Assembly (NCBI RefSeq): GCF_988242995.1
Contig: NZ_OZ547043.1
Length of the DNA: 64,000 bases
Reading direction: 5' to 3' (one strand)
In this document: positions 11,133-19,217 of the stretch, piece by piece
Layout: the number at the start of each line of letters is the position of its first letter
Position numbering within the stretch: the stretch's first letter is position 1
Notes under the pieces: model-generated
Told to the model about the DNA's origin: nothing
Seen by the model: only the letters and a program-made list of their open reading frames with translations
The model's database searches: none
Position numbers and translations under genes: made by a program

Positions 11133-12728
11133 GTGTTAGTTTCCAGTAACGTCACCATGCAGTTCGGCAGTAAGCCGTTGTTTGAAAACATTTCCGTCAA
11201 ATTTGGCGGCGGCAACCGTTACGGCCTGATTGGCGCGAACGGTAGTGGTAAATCCACCTTTATGAAGATTCTCGGCGGCGACCTTGAGCCGACGCTGGGT
11301 AACGTTTCCCTCGATCCCAACGAGCGCATTGGTAAGCTGCGTCAGGATCAGTTTGCCTTTGAAGAGTTCACTGTGTTGGATACGGTGATCATGGGGCATA
11401 AAGAGTTGTGGGAAGTGAAGCAGGAGCGCGACCGCATCTATGCTTTGCCGGAAATGAGTGAGGAAGACGGCTATAAAGTGGCCGATCTGGAAGTGAAATA
11501 CGGCGAAATGGACGGTTACTCTGCGGAAGCTCGCGCCGGTGAACTGTTGCTTGGCGTGGGAATTCCAGTGGAACAGCACTACGGCCCGATGAGTGAAGTT
11601 GCTCCTGGCTGGAAGCTGCGTGTGCTGCTGGCGCAGGCGCTGTTTGCTGATCCGGACATTCTCCTGCTCGACGAACCGACCAACAACCTCGACATCGACA
11701 CCATTCGGTGGCTGGAACAGGTGCTGAACGAGCGTGACAGCACCATGATCATCATCTCGCACGACCGTCACTTCCTTAACATGGTTTGTACCCACATGGC
11801 GGATCTGGATTACGGCGAGCTGCGCGTTTATCCAGGTAACTACGATGAGTACATGACGGCGGCGACCCAGGCGCGTGAACGTCTGCTGGCTGATAACGCC
11901 AAGAAGAAGGCGCAGATTGCTGAGCTGCAATCTTTCGTTAGCCGCTTTAGCGCCAACGCCTCGAAATCTCGCCAGGCAACTTCGCGCGCGCGCCAGATTG
12001 ATAAAATCAAACTGGAAGAGGTGAAAGCCTCCAGCCGTCAGAACCCGTTCATCCGTTTTGAACAGGATAAGAAACTGTTCCGTAACGCGCTGGAAGTGGA
12101 AGGTCTGACCAAAGGGTTTGATAACGGTCCACTGTTTAAAAATCTCAACCTGCTGCTGGAAGTGGGTGAAAAACTGGCTGTACTGGGTACCAACGGCGTC
12201 GGTAAATCAACGCTGCTGAAAACGCTGGTGGGCGATCTGCAACCGGACAGCGGCACCGTAAAATGGTCTGAAAACGCACGCATTGGTTACTACGCCCAGG
12301 ACCACGAATATGAGTTTGAAAATGATCTGACCGTGTTCGAATGGATGAGCCAGTGGAAGCAGGAAGGCGATGACGAGCAGGCGGTACGCAGCATTCTCGG
12401 TCGTTTGCTGTTCAGCCAGGACGACATCAAAAAGCCAGCGAAAGTGCTTTCCGGTGGAGAAAAAGGGCGGATGCTGTTTGGTAAGTTAATGATGCAGAAG
12501 CCGAACATTCTGATCATGGACGAACCGACCAACCACCTGGATATGGAATCCATTGAGTCGCTGAACATGGCATTGGAACTGTATCAGGGCACGCTGATCT
12601 TTGTTTCTCACGACCGTGAGTTTGTAAGCTCCCTGGCGACCCGCATTCTGGAAATCACCCCGGAACGCGTGATCGACTTTAGCGGTAATTACGAAGATTA
12701 CCTGCGTAGTAAAGGGATCGACGGTTAA
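11133..12728 (+). CDS. ybiT: ABC-F family ATPase (two ATP-binding cassettes, no TM domain)
   Basis: Two Walker A motifs ([18 protein letters not shown]) and two ABC signatures; matches YbiT. The start is a GTG at 11133 and is not certain. Confidence 0.9.
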
Positions 12729-12865
12729 TTTCCCGCCGTCTTTCATGCGGCAGATGCATTGGCTTCACCTGTTCACCCCGGTCACTTACTTATTTAAGCT
12801 CCCGGGGTTTACAGGTTTGCTGCCTTCCTGCAGCGTGAAATACTGAGGTAAAGGATTCGATGGCT

Positions 12866-12896
12866 GGACCGGGTAAGGCGCAGTCGCCTCCCGGCC
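12866..12896. repeat. REP-like palindromic element (diverged)
   Basis: GGACCGGGTAAGGCGCAGTCGCCTCCCGGCC resembles the REP consensus (GCCGGATAAGGCG...CGCC..TCCGGC) with several mismatches. Confidence 0.35.
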
Positions 12897-12907
12897 CCGG
12901 TAATGAT

Positions 12908-15283
12908 TTAACGCATCCATTCACTCCCTTCAACACCATTGACCAGCAGCGTGCGTTTTTCTTCCACTGGTAATGACACTTTCAGTGCACTCCATGCAGG
13001 TCGATAATCCCCGCGCGCGTTGACTTTCAGGTTGATGGTCGCCCCATCGCAAACCATTTCCCATTCCACCCAAAGCGCATTACCAGTTTGGTAGCCCCAG
13101 CTTTCGCCATCGTCTTCAAACAGCAGGCCGGACGTTGTGCCCACACCTTTCAGCGGGAACAGTTTCAGTTCGCGGGTATCGTCTTGTTCTGCGCTCACAT
13201 AGGTGATGCGTTTGCTGAGCGGTAGACCAGCCCCGGCACGCACCATCAGCGGCAGTTTCTCCAGCGGTGCGTCGAGGGTGATCCACTGACCGCCACTGAA
13301 CCATTCGCCGTTGTAGAAATCGTACCAGCCAGTTTCGTTATCTGGCAGCCATACACGGCGCTGGCGCTCGCCTTGCTCTACGACGCTGGCAACCAAAATA
13401 TCGCGACCAAGCAGGAAGTCATCACACTCTTCAAAAGTCTGAACGTCGTGCTCGTGGTCAAGGAAAGTCGGACGTAGCATTGGTTCATCATCGGCGTATG
13501 CCTGCCACATCAGGGTATAAAAGTAGGGCAGCAGGCGATAGCGCAACTCAATAGCGCTGCGGATCGCCGGAGTGACGCCCGGATACATCCACGGTTCGTT
13601 TACGGTATGGTCATCGTTCCACGAGTGAATCGTAAAGCGCGGATGCATCACGCCGTTTTGTACCCAGCGTACAAACAGTTCCGGGTCCGGCTTATCACCG
13701 GAGAAACCGCCGACGTCGTGACCGAGGTTATACAGCCCGGAGAGGCTCATCCCCAGACCCATGCGGGTGTTGTAGCGCAGAGTGTCCCAGCTAGTGCGGT
13801 TATCGCCACTCCAGGTCTGCACGTAGCGCTGCATTCCCGCGCAGCCGGAGCGGGAGATCAAGTACGGACGTTTTTCCGGAGCGAAACGCTGCTGGGCTTC
13901 CATCGAGGCTCGCATCATCAGCAGTGGCATCACTGGGCGAATATGTTTGATCGCGATCGTCTGACCAAAGCCGTGACAGCGTGCTTCACCGTCCCATACT
14001 TCGAATTCGTTGTTGTCGTTCCAGGTGGAGTCGATACCCATCTCCAGAAGCTGTGTGGTCACGCCTTCCTGCCACCACTGGATGGTCTGCGGATTAGTAA
14101 AGTCGAGGTTAGAACCTTCGTCATCCCAGAAGCTGGAACGTTCTGGTTCATCTGTTTCTGAATCACGGATGAACAGTCCTCTTTCTGCCACTTCGTTATA
14201 GCGTGGGTGATCCTGCAACAGGCACGGCTTGATATTGGCGGCCAAGTGCAAACCAGCATTGTGAAATGCCTGGCTCATCACTTTCGGCTGCGGCACTTTG
14301 TCGTAATTCCAGTTGAACACATAGCGCTTGCCGTTAATTGAGGTATAACCGGAAGAGAGCTGGAACGAATCGCAGGGAATCGCATGTTCTTCACACAGGC
14401 GGATAAAGTTCATCAACTGATTTTGTGCGTCCGGCGCATCGGTGTAGTGCATAGTTGAACCGCTGTAGCCCAGGCTCCATTTCGGTCCGAACAGGGTTTT
14501 GCCGGTCAGGCGTACGAAGGCTTTGGTGATATCAAGTACGCGTTCGCCGGTAAACAGGTAGTAGTCGATATCACCCGCTTCCGCCTGCCAGCGGCGATAG
14601 GCGGTGTGGTAGTTGTCGATCTCGTTGCCCAGATCCAGCCAGCAGCTGCTGAGGTTGTCATAAAACAGGCCGAAGCTAACGTCATCGCGGCGGGTGATGG
14701 TGAATGGAATGTGTTTGTACAACGGGTCAGTACTAACGGCGTTGTAGCCCATCGCGTCGAGGTTACGCATCTCGTAACGTTTACCGTTGCGTTGCAGGTC
14801 GCCGGCTTTATCTCCGAGGCCATAAAAGCGTTCATCTTTACGACGGCTCTGATAGTGCGCCACGCCGTCGCCGTGGGCATTCAGCAGATAAGCGCTGGTC
14901 GGGCGGTCATTCACCAACGGCAGCCATTCGCCTTCGTTGTTACGATAGTGCCACTCCAGCCACAGCGGCTGGTGAACGGTGGCACGCAGTGACTCGGTGG
15001 CGATAACCACGGTGTCGTCGTGCTGGATCAATGTCCACGCGGGCAGGCTAAAGCCGCTGAGATCTTCGCGGCTGCGCCCTTCCCATGGCACATCCTGCGC
15101 CGGAGCAATGCTCCAGGTGCGATCCAGCGCCAGCTCGCCTTTGCGTTTTAACAGCACGCGGAACAGATTTTCTTCCAGCACGTACAGGCACAGGATATGC
15201 TGGCCATCGACCAGCAGTTCAACGTGGTGGGCAGACTGTTTGTGCAGGGTCCAGTTTTTCAGCGTTTTCATGTTTACATCCAT
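12908..15283 (-). CDS. Glycoside hydrolase family 31 alpha-glycosidase, cytoplasmic, substrate unknown
   Basis: 791-aa ORF with a GH31 nucleophile-region motif (GIDSTWNDNNEF, compare WIDMNE) and acid/base-region motif (VQTWSGDNRTSW). No signal peptide. Start may be the ATG at 15283 or 15271. Confidence 0.85.
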   Translation of the reverse strand: MDVNMKTLKNWTLHKQSAHHVELLVDGQHILCLYVLEENLFRVLLKRKGELALDRTWSIAPAQDVPWEGRSREDLSGFSLPAWTLIQHDDTVVIATESLRATVHQPLWLEWHYRNNEGEWLPLVNDRPTSAYLLNAHGDGVAHYQSRRKDERFYGLGDKAGDLQRNGKRYEMRNLDAMGYNAVSTDPLYKHIPFTITRRDDVSFGLFYDNLSSCWLDLGNEIDNYHTAYRRWQAEAGDIDYYLFTGERVLDITKAFVRLTGKTLFGPKWSLGYSGSTMHYTDAPDAQNQLMNFIRLCEEHAIPCDSFQLSSGYTSINGKRYVFNWNYDKVPQPKVMSQAFHNAGLHLAANIKPCLLQDHPRYNEVAERGLFIRDSETDEPERSSFWDDEGSNLDFTNPQTIQWWQEGVTTQLLEMGIDSTWNDNNEFEVWDGEARCHGFGQTIAIKHIRPVMPLLMMRASMEAQQRFAPEKRPYLISRSGCAGMQRYVQTWSGDNRTSWDTLRYNTRMGLGMSLSGLYNLGHDVGGFSGDKPDPELFVRWVQNGVMHPRFTIHSWNDDHTVNEPWMYPGVTPAIRSAIELRYRLLPYFYTLMWQAYADDEPMLRPTFLDHEHDVQTFEECDDFLLGRDILVASVVEQGERQRRVWLPDNETGWYDFYNGEWFSGGQWITLDAPLEKLPLMVRAGAGLPLSKRITYVSAEQDDTRELKLFPLKGVGTTSGLLFEDDGESWGYQTGNALWVEWEMVCDGATINLKVNARGDYRPAWSALKVSLPVEEKRTLLVNGVEGSEWMR

Positions 15284-15285
15284 TC

Positions 15286-16593
15286 TCAGGCGCGTTTTGC
15301 GCGACGTTCAGCAATAAAGGTGACCAGGAAGAAAGCACCAATCAGGTCAAAGAAGCCCATGGCGATAAACAGGGGGTTAAAGCCGATTTTGTCAGCGGTA
15401 ACCCCGATAATCAGGGAGAACAGGAAACTTGCGATCCACGCGGCAGAACCGCGCATGCCGTTAACAGTGGCCATCTGACCTTTGTCGAAGGATTCCACCA
15501 CCAGTGCGCTCAGCATGCAGGAGATGATCTGGTGACCGAAGCCGCCGATGGAAATAAGGACGATGGCGATATACGGGTTATTGGTAAAGGCCATCACCGC
15601 CAGCGAAACCATCAGGAATGCGCCACTGACCGATGATGCGACAACGGAGTTCACACGACTCAGCCCAAACAGGCGGGTGTAAAGTTTGGTCAGATAGCCG
15701 CTGGCAATACTGCCAAGATCAGCGGCGAGGAACGGCAACCAGGCGAATAATGCGATCTGCTTAAGGTCCATGCCATAGGTTTTGGACAGGTATAGCGGAA
15801 CCCAGAAACTCATCACCGCCCACGCCGGTTCTGCCATAAAGGCCGGGATAGCGATACCGTAAAAGCGTTTATTTTTGCCTACGGTTTTCAGTGCGGTCAG
15901 AAAGGGTAACTTGACAGGGGGCGCTTCGTTATCCTGGCGGATAAAGTCCAGCTCGGCTTTGCTGAGGTTAGGATGCTTATCCGGGTTGTGATAGAACGCC
16001 CACCACAGCACCACCCACAGCATCGCCAGGATGCCAGTGAACATAAATGCACCCTGCCAGCCGAATGAAGCGTGGGCAAAATAGATAATCGGTGGGGCCA
16101 GCATGGCACCGATGGAAAAACCGACGCCTGCCCAGCCTGCGGCGATCGGGCGTTCTGATTTTGGAAACCATTCACCGATGGTTTTGGCGTTTGCTGGGGT
16201 TGCCGCGGCTTCCGCACCGCCCATAAAGAAGCGCAACAGCGCCAGATGTACCCAGTTTCCCGCCCCCGCATGCATCAGACAGGCCAGCGCCCACAGTCCC
16301 GCGCAGATCATAAAGCCCAGTTTGAGGCCAATGACGTCAATCAGCCATCCACACAACGGTTGGAATAGGGTATAGGCGAGCTGGAAAGCACCTACAATCC
16401 AGGAATATTGTTCGGTGGTAATCCCCAGGCTGCTTTTCAGTTCGGGGGCGAGAATACCCAGCGAGTTACGCGTGATGTAGTTGACAGTAACACCGAGCAA
16501 AAAAAGGACCAGTATCCACCAACGCAGATTTTTGACGATATGGCGCGGTTTACTGGCAGTCATATCGTTATTGATACCCTGACTCATATGCAC
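15286..16593 (-). CDS. MFS transporter, anion:cation symporter (ACS) family-like
   Basis: 435-aa 12-TM-type ORF with an ACS-like N-terminal signature (RWWILVLFLLGVTVNYITRNSLGILAPE...). Its stop lies 2 nt upstream of the GH31 ATG, indicating an operon. Confidence 0.85.
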   Translation of the reverse strand: MHMSQGINNDMTASKPRHIVKNLRWWILVLFLLGVTVNYITRNSLGILAPELKSSLGITTEQYSWIVGAFQLAYTLFQPLCGWLIDVIGLKLGFMICAGLWALACLMHAGAGNWVHLALLRFFMGGAEAAATPANAKTIGEWFPKSERPIAAGWAGVGFSIGAMLAPPIIYFAHASFGWQGAFMFTGILAMLWVVLWWAFYHNPDKHPNLSKAELDFIRQDNEAPPVKLPFLTALKTVGKNKRFYGIAIPAFMAEPAWAVMSFWVPLYLSKTYGMDLKQIALFAWLPFLAADLGSIASGYLTKLYTRLFGLSRVNSVVASSVSGAFLMVSLAVMAFTNNPYIAIVLISIGGFGHQIISCMLSALVVESFDKGQMATVNGMRGSAAWIASFLFSLIIGVTADKIGFNPLFIAMGFFDLIGAFFLVTFIAERRAKRA

Positions 16594-16881
16594 TCCACAG
16601 AATGGTATAGGGTTTGTGCGGCAACGTCAGAATGGAGTTGTCACACCACTTTTAACTTTTTGATAAATAAAGTCTTTATTGTTCGTTTTTCCATTATTTT
16701 TGTATGGAAGTTGTTCTACCAATTCACAGTAAGAGACCCTAAAAGCGAAAGAAAGCGGGTTTTGTGCACGTTTTTCCATGAGTGACTGATATACATTACT
16801 GAAATGGATTTAATGCCAGACAGAATGGGCTTTTTTGCTCATGAAAATTCTGTCATTTCCGAATTAGAGGCAGATCACAAA

Positions 16882-17985
16882 ATGGACAAGAAGCTGAAAA
16901 TCGCCGATATCGCCGCACGTACCGGGCTATCGCCGAGTACGGTTTCGCGGGTGCTGGCTGGCAAAGCGAATACCAGTGCACGCGCTCGCGAACAGGTGCT
17001 GGCCTGCGCGCGTGAGTTGGGCGTGATGGATGGCATGGCAGCAGGTCGTATGTTGCTGAACAACCTGATTATTTTCGCGCCGCAACGCGCTTTTGACCAA
17101 CGATCTGATATCTTTTATTACCGTGTGATCCAGAGCATCAGCAAAGCGTTATCGCCGCATGAAGTGCGGCTGCGTTACTGCGCGCTGGAGGAGTTTGACA
17201 GCGATCCCGCGCTATTTCTCTCGCGGATGAATGAAGCAGATACGCAGGCGGCGATCCTGCTGGGGATTGACGATCCGCACATCCATGATCTGGCCGCCGA
17301 TCTCGCTAAGCCTTGTGTGCTGATCAACTGCCGTGATGAACGAATGCGCCTCCCGGCGATTGCGCCGGACCATCGGTTAATTGGCGCGTTCGCCGCCCGC
17401 TATCTGTTTGAAATGGGTCACCGGGAGGTGATGAATGTGATGTGCCTGCGCCGCTACACTATGGAGCAGCGGTTTGCAGGGATTAAAGAATCATGGCGTC
17501 AGCATAATCTGGCCTTTCACCATGACCGTCATTTGCTGAATATCAGCAGTTTTAGCGCTAAAGAAGCGGAAGAAAAGGTCGGAGCGTGGCTGGATGCCGC
17601 CAATGGCAAGACGTTGCCGACGGCGTTTCTGGTCGGCGGGGATTTTATGGCGGCGGGAACGGTAAATGCGCTACATCGTCGTGGTCTGCGCGTACCACAG
17701 GATGTCTCGGTGATGAGTATCGACGGCTTTAACCTTGCGGCAATCGAGGATGTTCCCCTGACGGCTGTGCATGTGCCACGCGATGAGCTAGGCAATGAAG
17801 CGGTGCAAATGTTGCAACAGCGGCTGATTCGCCCGGATGCTCCGGTGGGCTCGCTGCTGCTGCACGGACGATTGGCGGTGCGGGAGTCAGTGCGGCGGGT
17901 TCGCCCAGGAAAAGGGAACACCGCCGTGGAACGGGAAGGGCTGTACGACACTCAGCTGTCGATTCCCAACGCTCGCTTACCGTGA
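16882..17985 (+). CDS. LacI-family transcriptional regulator, divergent from the MFS-GH31 operon
   Basis: N-terminal HTH KIADIAARTGLSPSTVSRVL followed by a periplasmic-binding-protein-like sugar-binding core. Start chosen at MDKKLKIADI; upstream in-frame ATGs exist, so the start is uncertain. Confidence 0.8.
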   Translation: MDKKLKIADIAARTGLSPSTVSRVLAGKANTSARAREQVLACARELGVMDGMAAGRMLLNNLIIFAPQRAFDQRSDIFYYRVIQSISKALSPHEVRLRYCALEEFDSDPALFLSRMNEADTQAAILLGIDDPHIHDLAADLAKPCVLINCRDERMRLPAIAPDHRLIGAFAARYLFEMGHREVMNVMCLRRYTMEQRFAGIKESWRQHNLAFHHDRHLLNISSFSAKEAEEKVGAWLDAANGKTLPTAFLVGGDFMAAGTVNALHRRGLRVPQDVSVMSIDGFNLAAIEDVPLTAVHVPRDELGNEAVQMLQQRLIRPDAPVGSLLLHGRLAVRESVRRVRPGKGNTAVEREGLYDTQLSIPNARLP

Positions 17986-19217
17986 ATGTTGAGGTCGGCA
18001 AGCGTAAAGCGTCCTTCCCAGTTTGTTTCATAGTCCTCGCGCGGGAAGTCGCCCGGCGATGCGCCTTTTTCCAGTGCGGCCTTCACCTTGTGCGCGTAGG
18101 CAAGATTTTTCTCGCACATCGGTGCCGCAGGAATGTACATCACGTTGCCCCAGCCCTGTTGATTTTCAACGGGGGCAACGGAATGGATGACGTCGCAGTG
18201 CCACCAGACGGAGTCTCCGGCTTCGAGTTTTGGAATGCTGGTTAACGCCTCAATCAACAGTGGATGCCATTGCTCTGATACCGGCAATACTCTTCCGGGC
18301 GCTACGCCGCACAGTTCATCCTCCGGCACATCATCAAGCAGCGGACGTAACAGTACGTACGCCATGGCTTCAGGAATGGGCACGACGTGCAGCAGCCCCT
18401 GACCAGGCAGCATATCAGAGAGCGCTGTCCAGCCCTGGAATGTCCGAAACACGGAACATTTGGTGGTGTTGTCCACCGTGTACTCTTCAACTTCCGTACG
18501 ATGTGCCGCATGCCAGGGATCATATTGCGCCAGATTGCCATTAAAGACGTTGGCGAAAACGCGCTGATACGCTGGAAGCAGCCAGCGTTCCAGTGCCCCG
18601 GAGTCGGTATGCGCTCCAAGACCTTTGGAGGTCGTTCCGGGCGGACGGCGGCGGATACGGTCAGGGTAGATGACGCTCACATCCGGGTTAAACCATTGCT
18701 TTCCATCACTTTCAAATGTCCACAGACGATTGAGAAACGACTGCGCATTCGCCATTTCTTCACTCTGGCGAGCCTGCATTTGCGCCTGCGACCAGTAGAT
18801 GGGGTAAATCTCGGGACGTGAAGCGCTGAGCGTCCCGAAGAAATTATCGCCGGGGCCTTTGTAGACCTCGTCAAAGCGGTTGCGGTCCAGATAGTCCAGC
18901 ATCGACTGATCCCAGCCTAGCGCTTGTTCGCGGGGGAAATGGCCTTTTATCACCGCACAACCGCGACGTTTAATCTGTTCGCGCTGCTCTGCAGTAACAT
19001 GACCTGCTTTGATATCGGCATAAGACAGCACCGGCCAGATGGCATCGCCCTGTGCTTTGAGTGCGTTGATTTCAGCCACTCGCGTAGCAATGTCATCGCT
19101 TAGCTGATTAAAGATCTGCTGGACGTCGCCAAGCTGTGCCCGCAGCGCGTGCTTCATCTGACGGATAGCTGCTTTGTGATCGGCAGGCAATGTGTCGCTG
19201 GTAAAAGTAGAAGCCAT
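17952..19217 (-). CDS. ybiU: DUF1479-family protein
   Basis: Start MASTFTSDTLPADHKAAIRQ... preceded by SD GAGGTGG; matches YbiU. Its 3' end overlaps the convergent LacI-family gene by 34 bp. Confidence 0.85.
   Translation of the reverse strand: MASTFTSDTLPADHKAAIRQMKHALRAQLGDVQQIFNQLSDDIATRVAEINALKAQGDAIWPVLSYADIKAGHVTAEQREQIKRRGCAVIKGHFPREQALGWDQSMLDYLDRNRFDEVYKGPGDNFFGTLSASRPEIYPIYWSQAQMQARQSEEMANAQSFLNRLWTFESDGKQWFNPDVSVIYPDRIRRRPPGTTSKGLGAHTDSGALERWLLPAYQRVFANVFNGNLAQYDPWHAAHRTEVEEYTVDNTTKCSVFRTFQGWTALSDMLPGQGLLHVVPIPEAMAYVLLRPLLDDVPEDELCGVAPGRVLPVSEQWHPLLIEALTSIPKLEAGDSVWWHCDVIHSVAPVENQQGWGNVMYIPAAPMCEKNLAYAHKVKAALEKGASPGDFPREDYETNWEGRFTLADLNIHGKRALGIDS

Follow-up and report, generated by a model that had tools for sequence, protein, structure and literature searches.

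A three-gene GH31 glycosidase module between ybiT and ybiU of Escherichia coli with a possible role in the use of small alpha-D-glucuronides

The 64,000-nucleotide stretch of contig NZ_OZ547043.1 (RefSeq assembly GCF_988242995.1) analysed here, referred to as the window, carries three genes between ybiT and ybiU of Escherichia coli, which encode a glycosidase of glycoside hydrolase family 31 (GH31), a major facilitator superfamily (MFS) transporter and a divergently transcribed LacI-family regulator (Table 1). RefSeq genomes with the same DNA describe them only generically as GH31 protein, MFS transporter and LacI-family regulator. We lean towards the view that the three genes serve the uptake and cytoplasmic hydrolysis of a small alpha-D-glucuronide, whose product would feed the Uxa/Uxu pathway. 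This predicts a new specificity within GH31, set in a classic module of regulator, transporter and glycosidase. The first-pass annotation of the window considered the pairing of an anion transporter with a GH31 enzyme unusual and the substrate open. The comparative context now ties the enzyme to D-glucuronate catabolism, and the pairing is to be expected if the sugar is a uronic acid.

Gene neighbourhoods across species

A scan of one genome per species found an orthologue of the glycosidase in 80 species, with 58 to 91% identity. Open reading frames (ORFs) were called in the 80 loci and clustered by BLASTP, and the recurrent families were named with NCBIfam; in the alphaproteobacterial loci L085 and L090, whose GC content is high, this crude calling broke down, and their transporters are not among the calls. 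The MFS gene immediately precedes the GH31 gene in 68 of the 80 species, and a divergent LacI gene is present in 58 loci. In the loci without LacI, the GH31 gene is found among the genes for UxaC, UxuB, UxuA, UxuR, KdgK and Eda. By tblastn, UxaC lies within 10 kb of GH31 in 19 of the 80 loci, along with UxuB, UxuA, UxuR, KdgK or Eda. The glucuronate isomerase UxaC (675 bits, cut-off 387), the fructuronate reductase UxuB (803, cut-off 603), the mannonate dehydratase UxuA (748, cut-off 200), UxuR (452, cut-off 442) and Eda all score above their model cut-offs, and KdgK just below (382 versus 400).

The linkage occurs in at least five gene orders, found in Erwiniaceae, Aeromonas, Zophobihabitans, Vibrio/Marinomonas/Pseudovibrio and Pasteurellaceae. 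Pantoea, Erwinia and Izhakiella, together with Klebsiella sp. BIGb0407, have uxuR-uxaC-(uxuB)-uxuA divergent from MFS-GH31, and Aeromonas has uxaC-uxuB divergent from MFS-GH31. The order is uxuB-uxaC-MFS-GH31 in Zophobihabitans, dctP / dctQ-dctM-GH31-uxuB-uxaC-(uxuA, kdgK, eda) in Vibrio, Marinomonas and Pseudovibrio, and eda-kdgK-uxaC-uxuB'-dctP / dctQ-dctM-GH31-uxuR-uxuA in Pasteurellaceae. This repeated and variously arranged linkage of GH31 and uxaC is not chance: for a gene at random, the probability of a position within 10 kb of the only uxaC in a genome of 4 to 5 Mb is below 1%.

In the last two of these groups, the GH31 gene is housed in the operon of a tripartite ATP-independent periplasmic (TRAP) transporter, which replaces the MFS transporter. 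Among solved structures, the TRAP binding protein most resembles a group of DctP proteins (PDB IDs 4n8y, 4n91, 4ovr, 4n15, and 4mhf), reportedly solved with bound glucuronate or galacturonate in the Enzyme Function Initiative (EFI) study.

More distant members of the glycosidase clade show the same association, with glucuronate genes beside GH31 in four of nine. Two of them, in the range of 41 to 47% identity, have the orders uxaC-uxuB-eda-kdgK-GH31 (locus L099) and manD-kdgK-eda-dctQ-dctM-GH31-dctP (locus L101). In loci L098 (9001-16905) and L102 (1-11481), the companions of GH31 are uxaC, the gene of a PIG-L-type deacetylase and that of another putative glycosidase, a protein of about 620 to 650 residues that is GDE_C/MGH1-like or unannotated. 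These neighbours suggest that the glycoside processed there is larger and contains an N-acetylhexosamine in addition to glucuronate. A distant member in Paraburkholderia has the order MFS-GH31-porin, another is found with an ABC importer, and three distant clade members lie on short contigs without informative context.

The GH31 clade and its sugar pocket

The hydrolase has the full GH31 architecture in Pfam (PF13802, 1.6e-36; PF01055, 4.6e-88; PF21365, 1.4e-22; and DUF5110), and 68 solved GH31 chains match it at E < 1e-10. The closest solved structures are eukaryotic glucosidase II and the Flavobacterium GH31 dextranase FjDex31A (E about 1e-80); YicI (3e-36) and YihQ (2e-31) are distant. In HMMER alignments, D419 (motif WNDNNE at residue 417) and D490 (motif WSGDN at residue 487) align with the catalytic aspartates of glucosidase II and FjDex31A. 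The protein has no signal peptide, and the earlier description of a cytoplasmic GH31 enzyme with both catalytic motifs is borne out by the Pfam architecture and the alignment.

Searching 1.84 billion representative proteins yielded 2,861 relatives at E <= 1e-30. We define the clade as the 103 sequences that share SSGY and WNDNNE among the best 118 full-length representatives plus the query. D419 and D490 are invariant in 101 to 103 of these 103 members. The clade signature is composed of M274, S306-S307-G308-Y309, R316, K348, and N420, with M274 found in 101 members and S307, R316, K348, and N420 in all 103. Position 306 is Ser, Gly or Ala and never Asp, whereas the canonical relatives, which come last in the list, have Asp at both 306 and 348 and Met at 420. 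The signature is present in all 80 orthologues. None of the solved structures belongs to the clade, the best PDB match carrying the canonical motifs, and although the clade is large, we found no characterised member.

The residues of the -1 subsite are listed for human acid alpha-glucosidase (GAA) (PMC5653652) and were mapped onto the query by a pairwise hidden Markov model (HMM) alignment of about 30% identity. On the O2/O3-binding side, GAA R600, D616 and H674 are kept as R474, D490 and H549; F649 is kept as F523, and I441 is conservatively changed to L351. Four further positions are replaced, namely W376 by M274, D404 after beta-strand 3 by S306, M519 after the nucleophile by N420, and the Asp three residues before I441 by K348. 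The canonical alpha-glucosidase subsite of the MalA, GAA and glucosidase II type is thus not matched at S306, N420 and M274. Two acids would be lost from the sugar pocket and one base, a lysine, gained, and we place this change on the C4-C6 side because the O2/O3-binding residues are kept. A pocket remodelled in this way may suit a carboxylate.

The transporter

The MFS protein shares 43% identity with E. coli ExuT over 414 residues (BLASTP, E 4e-120). Its best NCBIfam model is TIGR00893 (2.A.1.14), with 267 bits below the cut-off of 395, and its best solved relative is the galactonate/H+ symporter DgoT (1e-38). R42 and E128, numbered on the 435-residue ORF, align with DgoT R47, the carboxylate-binding residue of transmembrane helix 1 (TM1), and with E133 of TM4. 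The position of DgoT D46 is a Thr, as in ExuT, and a T-R-N motif is common to both proteins. Judged by these alignments, the transporter is an ExuT paralogue that probably belongs to the anion:cation symporter branch, where the first-pass annotation had tentatively placed it.

Proposed function

In the proposed pathway, the ExuT-like transporter would import an anionic glycoside by proton symport, where we infer both the direction and the coupling of transport. The cytoplasmic GH31 enzyme, with its more basic pocket, would cleave the alpha-glycosidic bond by the retaining two-Asp mechanism, with D419 as nucleophile and D490 as acid/base, and D-glucuronate would be the glycone and not the leaving group. 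The freed D-glucuronate would enter the core UxaC-UxuB-UxuA-KdgK-Eda pathway, which is encoded elsewhere in E. coli. The LacI-family protein would repress the divergent promoters through operators of the TGAAAANNTTTTCA type until the substrate or product is present.

Candidates for the aglycone would be glycerol (in glucuronosyl-glycerol from glucuronosyl-diacylglycerol), xylose (in aldobiouronic acid from glucuronoxylan) and inositol-type head groups. In Zophobihabitans entericus (locus L089, 12476-15376), genes for glycerol dehydrogenase and dihydroxyacetone kinase follow directly after GH31 on the same strand, suggesting glucuronosyl-glycerol, the head group of glucuronosyl-diacylglycerol, as the substrate; no other hint of an aglycone was seen in the 80 loci. 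Among these loci, glycerol genes are found only there, apart from a weak GlpK-like kinase in locus L071 that scores below the cut-offs. Plants, algae and many bacteria are documented to contain glucuronosyl-diacylglycerol (PMC3586718 and PMC4796936, among others). The narrower idea that the enzyme is an alpha-glucuronidase of new specificity for alpha-glucuronosyl-glycerol, derived from this phosphate-sparing lipid of plants, algae and many marine and soil bacteria, is tentative, and we consider it rather unlikely. If true, the system would be the carboxylate counterpart of the sulfoquinovosyl-glycerol/YihQ system and an undescribed lipid-recycling route in E. coli, Klebsiella, Yersinia, Vibrio and Pasteurellaceae. 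The xylose genes XylA and XylB are found beside none of the 80 loci, which speaks neither for nor against an aldouronate, because the xyl genes are core genes located elsewhere.

A link to aldouronates might come from Enterobacter asburiae JDR-1, which, in the work of Bi et al. from 2009, reportedly ferments methylglucuronoxylose after uptake by means of an unidentified intracellular alpha-glucuronidase. E. asburiae carries the module (locus L012, 89% identity), and the GH31 enzyme would be a candidate for this activity if our proposal is correct. In that case, GH31 would also gain alpha-glucuronides as a substrate class and the clade a function. A role would be given to a generically annotated locus in Klebsiella, Enterobacter, Citrobacter, Serratia, Yersinia pestis, Pectobacterium, Pseudomonas syringae, Vibrio, Pasteurellaceae and about 10% of complete E. 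coli genomes; the locus would be a nutrient niche trait that varies between E. coli strains. It would possibly also provide a catabolic route for the head groups of glucuronosyl-diacylglycerol, for which we found no described enzyme. Our literature search on a GH31 alpha-glucuronidase, with the published GH31 subfamily classification outside that search, retrieved nothing relevant, and the same holds for searches on glucuronosyl-glycerol catabolism, enterobacterial aldouronate use and the ybiT/ybiU locus.

Several points weigh against the alpha-glucuronide proposal. It rests on sequence and gene neighbourhood, and the link of the E. coli block to glucuronate is transferred from orthologues of 58 to 80% identity. 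LacI is the only companion of the module in 58 of the 80 species, E. coli included, and uxu genes are not among its neighbours there. The neighbourhood shows glucuronate to be a product but does not identify it as the occupant of the -1 subsite; the context would be no different for a neutral sugar in alpha-linkage to glucuronate. The pocket argument is limited by the identity of about 30% in the underlying pairwise alignment, and Arg316 is not diagnostic, being found in glucosidase II as well. The known substrates of ExuT and the related TRAP systems are free hexuronates, so that import by the ExuT-like and TRAP carriers might be limited to the monosaccharide. The hint at glycerol is confined to the single genome of Zophobihabitans.

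Alternative substrates

The main rival is a disaccharide of a neutral sugar and glucuronate, in which glucose, galactose, an N-acetylhexosamine or a similar sugar occupies the -1 subsite and glucuronate is the leaving group, while uptake, regulation and Uxa/Uxu catabolism are unchanged. It fits the context equally well, explaining the same uxu neighbourhood and the anion transporters; the O2/O3-binding residues are canonical, and the deacetylase and second putative glycosidase beside two distant members suggest multi-sugar substrates with N-acetylhexosamine. The remodelled pocket fits it less well, since the residues recognising C4-C6 of glucose are all replaced and the pocket is more basic, which is unexpected for a plain glucose or xylose glycone. 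Moreover, genes for the catabolism of another sugar are not found with the module in any of the 80 loci, and the small MFS and TRAP carriers favour small substrates. We regard this reading as unlikely, though a serious competitor.

An ordinary alpha-glucoside or alpha-xyloside operon, whose ExuT-like carrier has drifted to a neutral substrate, is improbable. The best NCBIfam matches of the hydrolase are indeed the MalA alpha-glucosidase and the YicI alpha-xylosidase, and its best solved relatives are glucosidase II and a dextranase. ExuT itself is said, by the title of one paper (PMC6989600), to act as a glucose carrier after adaptation. However, all equivalog scores are far under their cut-offs (MalA, 305 versus 800; YicI, NF007940, 229 versus 606; YihQ type, 138 versus 553), the invariant -1 subsite Asp is absent from the entire clade, the transporter keeps the anion-binding Arg, and the recurrent embedding in glucuronate operons would be unexplained. 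A plain alpha-glucosidase or alpha-xylosidase was rejected on the cut-offs and the missing subsite Asp.

A system for pectin-derived alpha-galacturonides, with galacturonate passing through UxaC-UxaB-UxaA, appears very improbable. ExuT carries both hexuronates, UxaC is common to both branches, the lost O4-binding residue could fit an axial O4, and many hosts are plant associated. The recurrent neighbours, however, are the glucuronate-specific UxuB and UxuA, regulated by UxuR, and UxaA of the galacturonate branch is found beside none of the 80 loci.

A second sulfoquinovosidase-type system for an anionic sulfosugar glycoside is hardly credible, although GH31 already includes sulfoquinovosidases, recently with a second clade named SqgH (PMC12780224), and although the substrate would be anionic and Arg316 aligns with R301 of YihQ: the sulfonate-binding RWY motif of YihQ (R301, W304, Y508; PMC12780224) reads R316, F319 and F523 here, as in glucosidase II, with one of three residues kept, the Lys found two residues before the nucleophile in the SqgH clade (PMC12780224) is an invariant Trp in ours, and no sulfoglycolysis genes are among the recurrent neighbour families of the 80 loci. 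We rejected this option, which the first-pass annotation had put forward for residue scoring, on the RWY motif and the score of the YihQ-type model.

Comparison with known systems

Returning to the predicted alpha-glucuronide system, one close counterpart is the sulfoquinovose system yihQ-yihO of E. coli, which also has a cytoplasmic GH31 enzyme acting on an imported anionic C6-modified alpha-glucoside, a dedicated importer, a repressor and a glycolysis-like outlet, in addition to the aligned arginine. The two enzymes belong to different GH31 clades, with 28% identity over the barrel and W304 and Y508 of YihQ replaced here, the transporter is of the GPH type there and ExuT-like here, and the sulfo-pathway genes are missing from our module. 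The two-gene layout of transporter followed by cytoplasmic GH31 enzyme is shared with the alpha-xyloside operon yicI-yicJ, where, in contrast, YicJ is a GPH carrier and YicI has retained the canonical Asp and falls into a different subfamily.

In the uidA-uidB-uidC (gus) operon, a glucuronide is imported and hydrolysed in the cytoplasm and the glucuronate passes to UxaC and UxuAB, as would be the case here. UidA, however, is a GH2 enzyme for beta-linkages, with a GPH-family carrier and a non-LacI regulator, whereas the known members of GH31 are alpha-acting. The exuT-uxaCA-uxuAB regulon is related through its 43% identical transporter, and the module is physically integrated into the UxuR regulon in other genera. 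ExuT differs in transporting free hexuronates under ExuR control, whereas the carrier here would be co-transcribed with a glycosidase gene and, in E. coli, be under LacI-type control. The predicted reaction, the release of D-glucuronate from an alpha-glucuronide, is that of the alpha-glucuronidases of GH67, GH115 and GH4, which have unrelated folds and mechanisms, GH67 and GH115 being inverting and GH4 NAD dependent.

Regulator and control region

The LacI-family protein gives full-length matches to the RbsR, CytR and PurR models, all below the equivalog cut-offs, and its orthologues carry the Pfam domains PF00356 and PF13377. It is predicted to act as a repressor. The palindrome TGAAAANNTTTTCA is located 26 nt upstream of the LacI start, with at most one mismatch in 49 of the 58 loci that contain LacI, and many of these loci and genera have another copy some 77 nt beyond it. 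E. coli departs from the palindrome by two mismatches at the first site and by four at the degenerate second one, and such degenerate candidate operators may point to altered control. A single promoter-like match, on the minus strand at 16722-16693, is directed toward the MFS gene. The LacI start at 16882, chosen in the first-pass annotation, is favoured over the PGAP start at 16825 by the N-termini of the orthologues and by the conserved spacing of the palindrome.

Structure of the locus

Features of the locus are listed in Table 1. The three ORFs lie where the first-pass annotation had placed them, but the gap of 2 nt between the GH31 and MFS genes has to be corrected to 14 nt, counted from the GH31 start at Met5 (15271), which is used by PGAP and all orthologues, in place of the ORF start at 15283. 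The MFS gene probably starts with the ATG at 16587, not at 16593.

Table 1. Features of the ybiT-ybiU region, with positions in the window.
Feature	Position	Strand	Remarks
ybiT (ABC-F ATPase), left flank	11133..12728	+	End codons differ from K-12; left break point inside them
Copy of a dispersed repeat of about 110 bp	12732..12841	none	Inverted repeat with 22-nt arms, 12767-12788 / 12795-12816
GC-rich REP-like hairpin	12869..12894	-	14 nt past the GH31 stop codon; read from sequence
Cytoplasmic GH31 glycosidase, 787 aa	12908..15271	-	D419 (WNDNNE), D490 (WSGDN); predicted alpha-glucuronidase
MFS transporter, 433 aa, ExuT paralogue	15286..16587	-	Predicted proton symporter for a glucuronide
AT-rich divergent control region	16588..16881	none	Promoter-like match toward the MFS gene
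Operator-like palindrome TGAAAATTCTGTCA	16843..16856	none	Differs from the conserved TGAAAANNTTTTCA at 2 positions; lies 26 nt upstream of the ATG of LacI
LacI-family regulator, 367 aa	16882..17985	+	Last 34 nt overlap the ybiU 3' end on the opposite strand
ybiU (DUF1479), right flank	17952..19217	-	Right break point inside its last three codons

In K-12 MG1655, ybiT and ybiU are neighbours, as the first-pass annotation had stated, with a 240-bp spacer rich in repetitive extragenic palindromic (REP) and bacterial interspersed mosaic (BIME) elements, and the three genes are not there. Compared with the K-12 junction by BLAST, homology stops at window position 12721 and restarts at 17959, and a 5,237-bp segment (12722-17958) stands in place of 251 bp of K-12. 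The break points (12721/12722 and 17958/17959) are within the last codons of the two flanking genes. The two sequences differ there, with GIDG versus GIE at the end of YbiT and IDS versus MDV at that of YbiU, each up to the stop codon. The C-terminal tail of LacI is coded across the junction, with the last 27 nt of the ORF being K-12-type ybiU sequence. In Klebsiella, the overlap of LacI and ybiU is 4 nt, compared with 34 nt here.

At the left border, where a diverged REP-like element had been described, a REP-like hairpin is indeed present, but the border is mainly formed by the dispersed repeat of about 110 bp. The repeat has matches in 5,423 of 5,426 E. coli genomes, at a median of 9 places per genome and with about 77% identity over query positions 4-113, and looks like an ERIC/IRU element by comparison with their consensus. 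It occupies exactly the position of the K-12 REP/BIME spacer. The hairpin has no T-run and is not a canonical intrinsic terminator, and the terminator scan did not list it.

Distribution and origin of the block

Among complete E. coli genomes, 577 of 5,426 (about 1 in 10) carry the segment, on the chromosome every time, in agreement with its description as accessory in this species. It falls into two sequence classes, with about 99.4 to 99.8% and 98.1% identity to the window. A K-12-type spacer is found at a coverage of at least 80% in 2,687 of the 5,426 genomes, the others having different spacer variants, and the ybiT-ybiU spacer is strongly polymorphic across E. coli. The locus is absent from MG1655 and EC958; an assumption that the carriers belong to sequence type 131 (ST131) was dropped because EC958 is without it.

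About 20 other Enterobacteriaceae species have the block at the same site, in the order ybiW-ybiV-ybiU / LacI / MFS-GH31 / ybiT-ldtB, with the genera including Citrobacter, Enterobacter, Klebsiella, Kluyvera, Leclercia, Pseudocitrobacter, Kosakonia, Pluralibacter and Siccibacter. The identities to these species are 84 to 91% for GH31, 84 to 91% for MFS and 71 to 92% for LacI, which is within the range of the flanking core genes. The GC content of the segment, 0.51 to 0.58, is like that of the flanks. No integrase or transposase ORFs are found at the locus, no tRNA in window positions 1-30000 and no Rfam match in the 10-20 kb region, in line with the earlier remark that no integrase or tRNA is nearby. 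The block is therefore an old syntenic locus of the Enterobacteriaceae that most E. coli lineages are without, and not a mobile island. The reading of the first-pass annotation as a horizontally inserted island is abandoned because some 20 species share the site, the GC content equals that of the flanks, the break points are inside the flanking genes and mobility genes are missing.

The E. coli LacI is 89 to 92% identical to that of Kluyvera (loci L023 and L065) and 73 to 77% to that of Citrobacter (loci L015 and L066), whereas the flanking proteins YbiT, YbiU, YbiV and LdtB are closest to Citrobacter (93 to 96%). This misfit with simple vertical descent hints at an exchange of the block by homologous recombination. 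The distribution in E. coli would be due either to repeated loss or to re-introduction by homologous recombination through ybiT and ybiU.

An apparent third copy in strain IH5 (locus L100, NZ_CP168949.1) was rejected as a real transposition, as it lies in a chimeric assembly of fragments of about 1 kb. There, a 978-bp piece of the GH31/MFS junction is found among partial pieces, each of about 1 kb, of capsid, bla, casA and tuf genes. The PGAP note on the MFS fragment of IH5 reads "involved in the transport of aldohexuronates".

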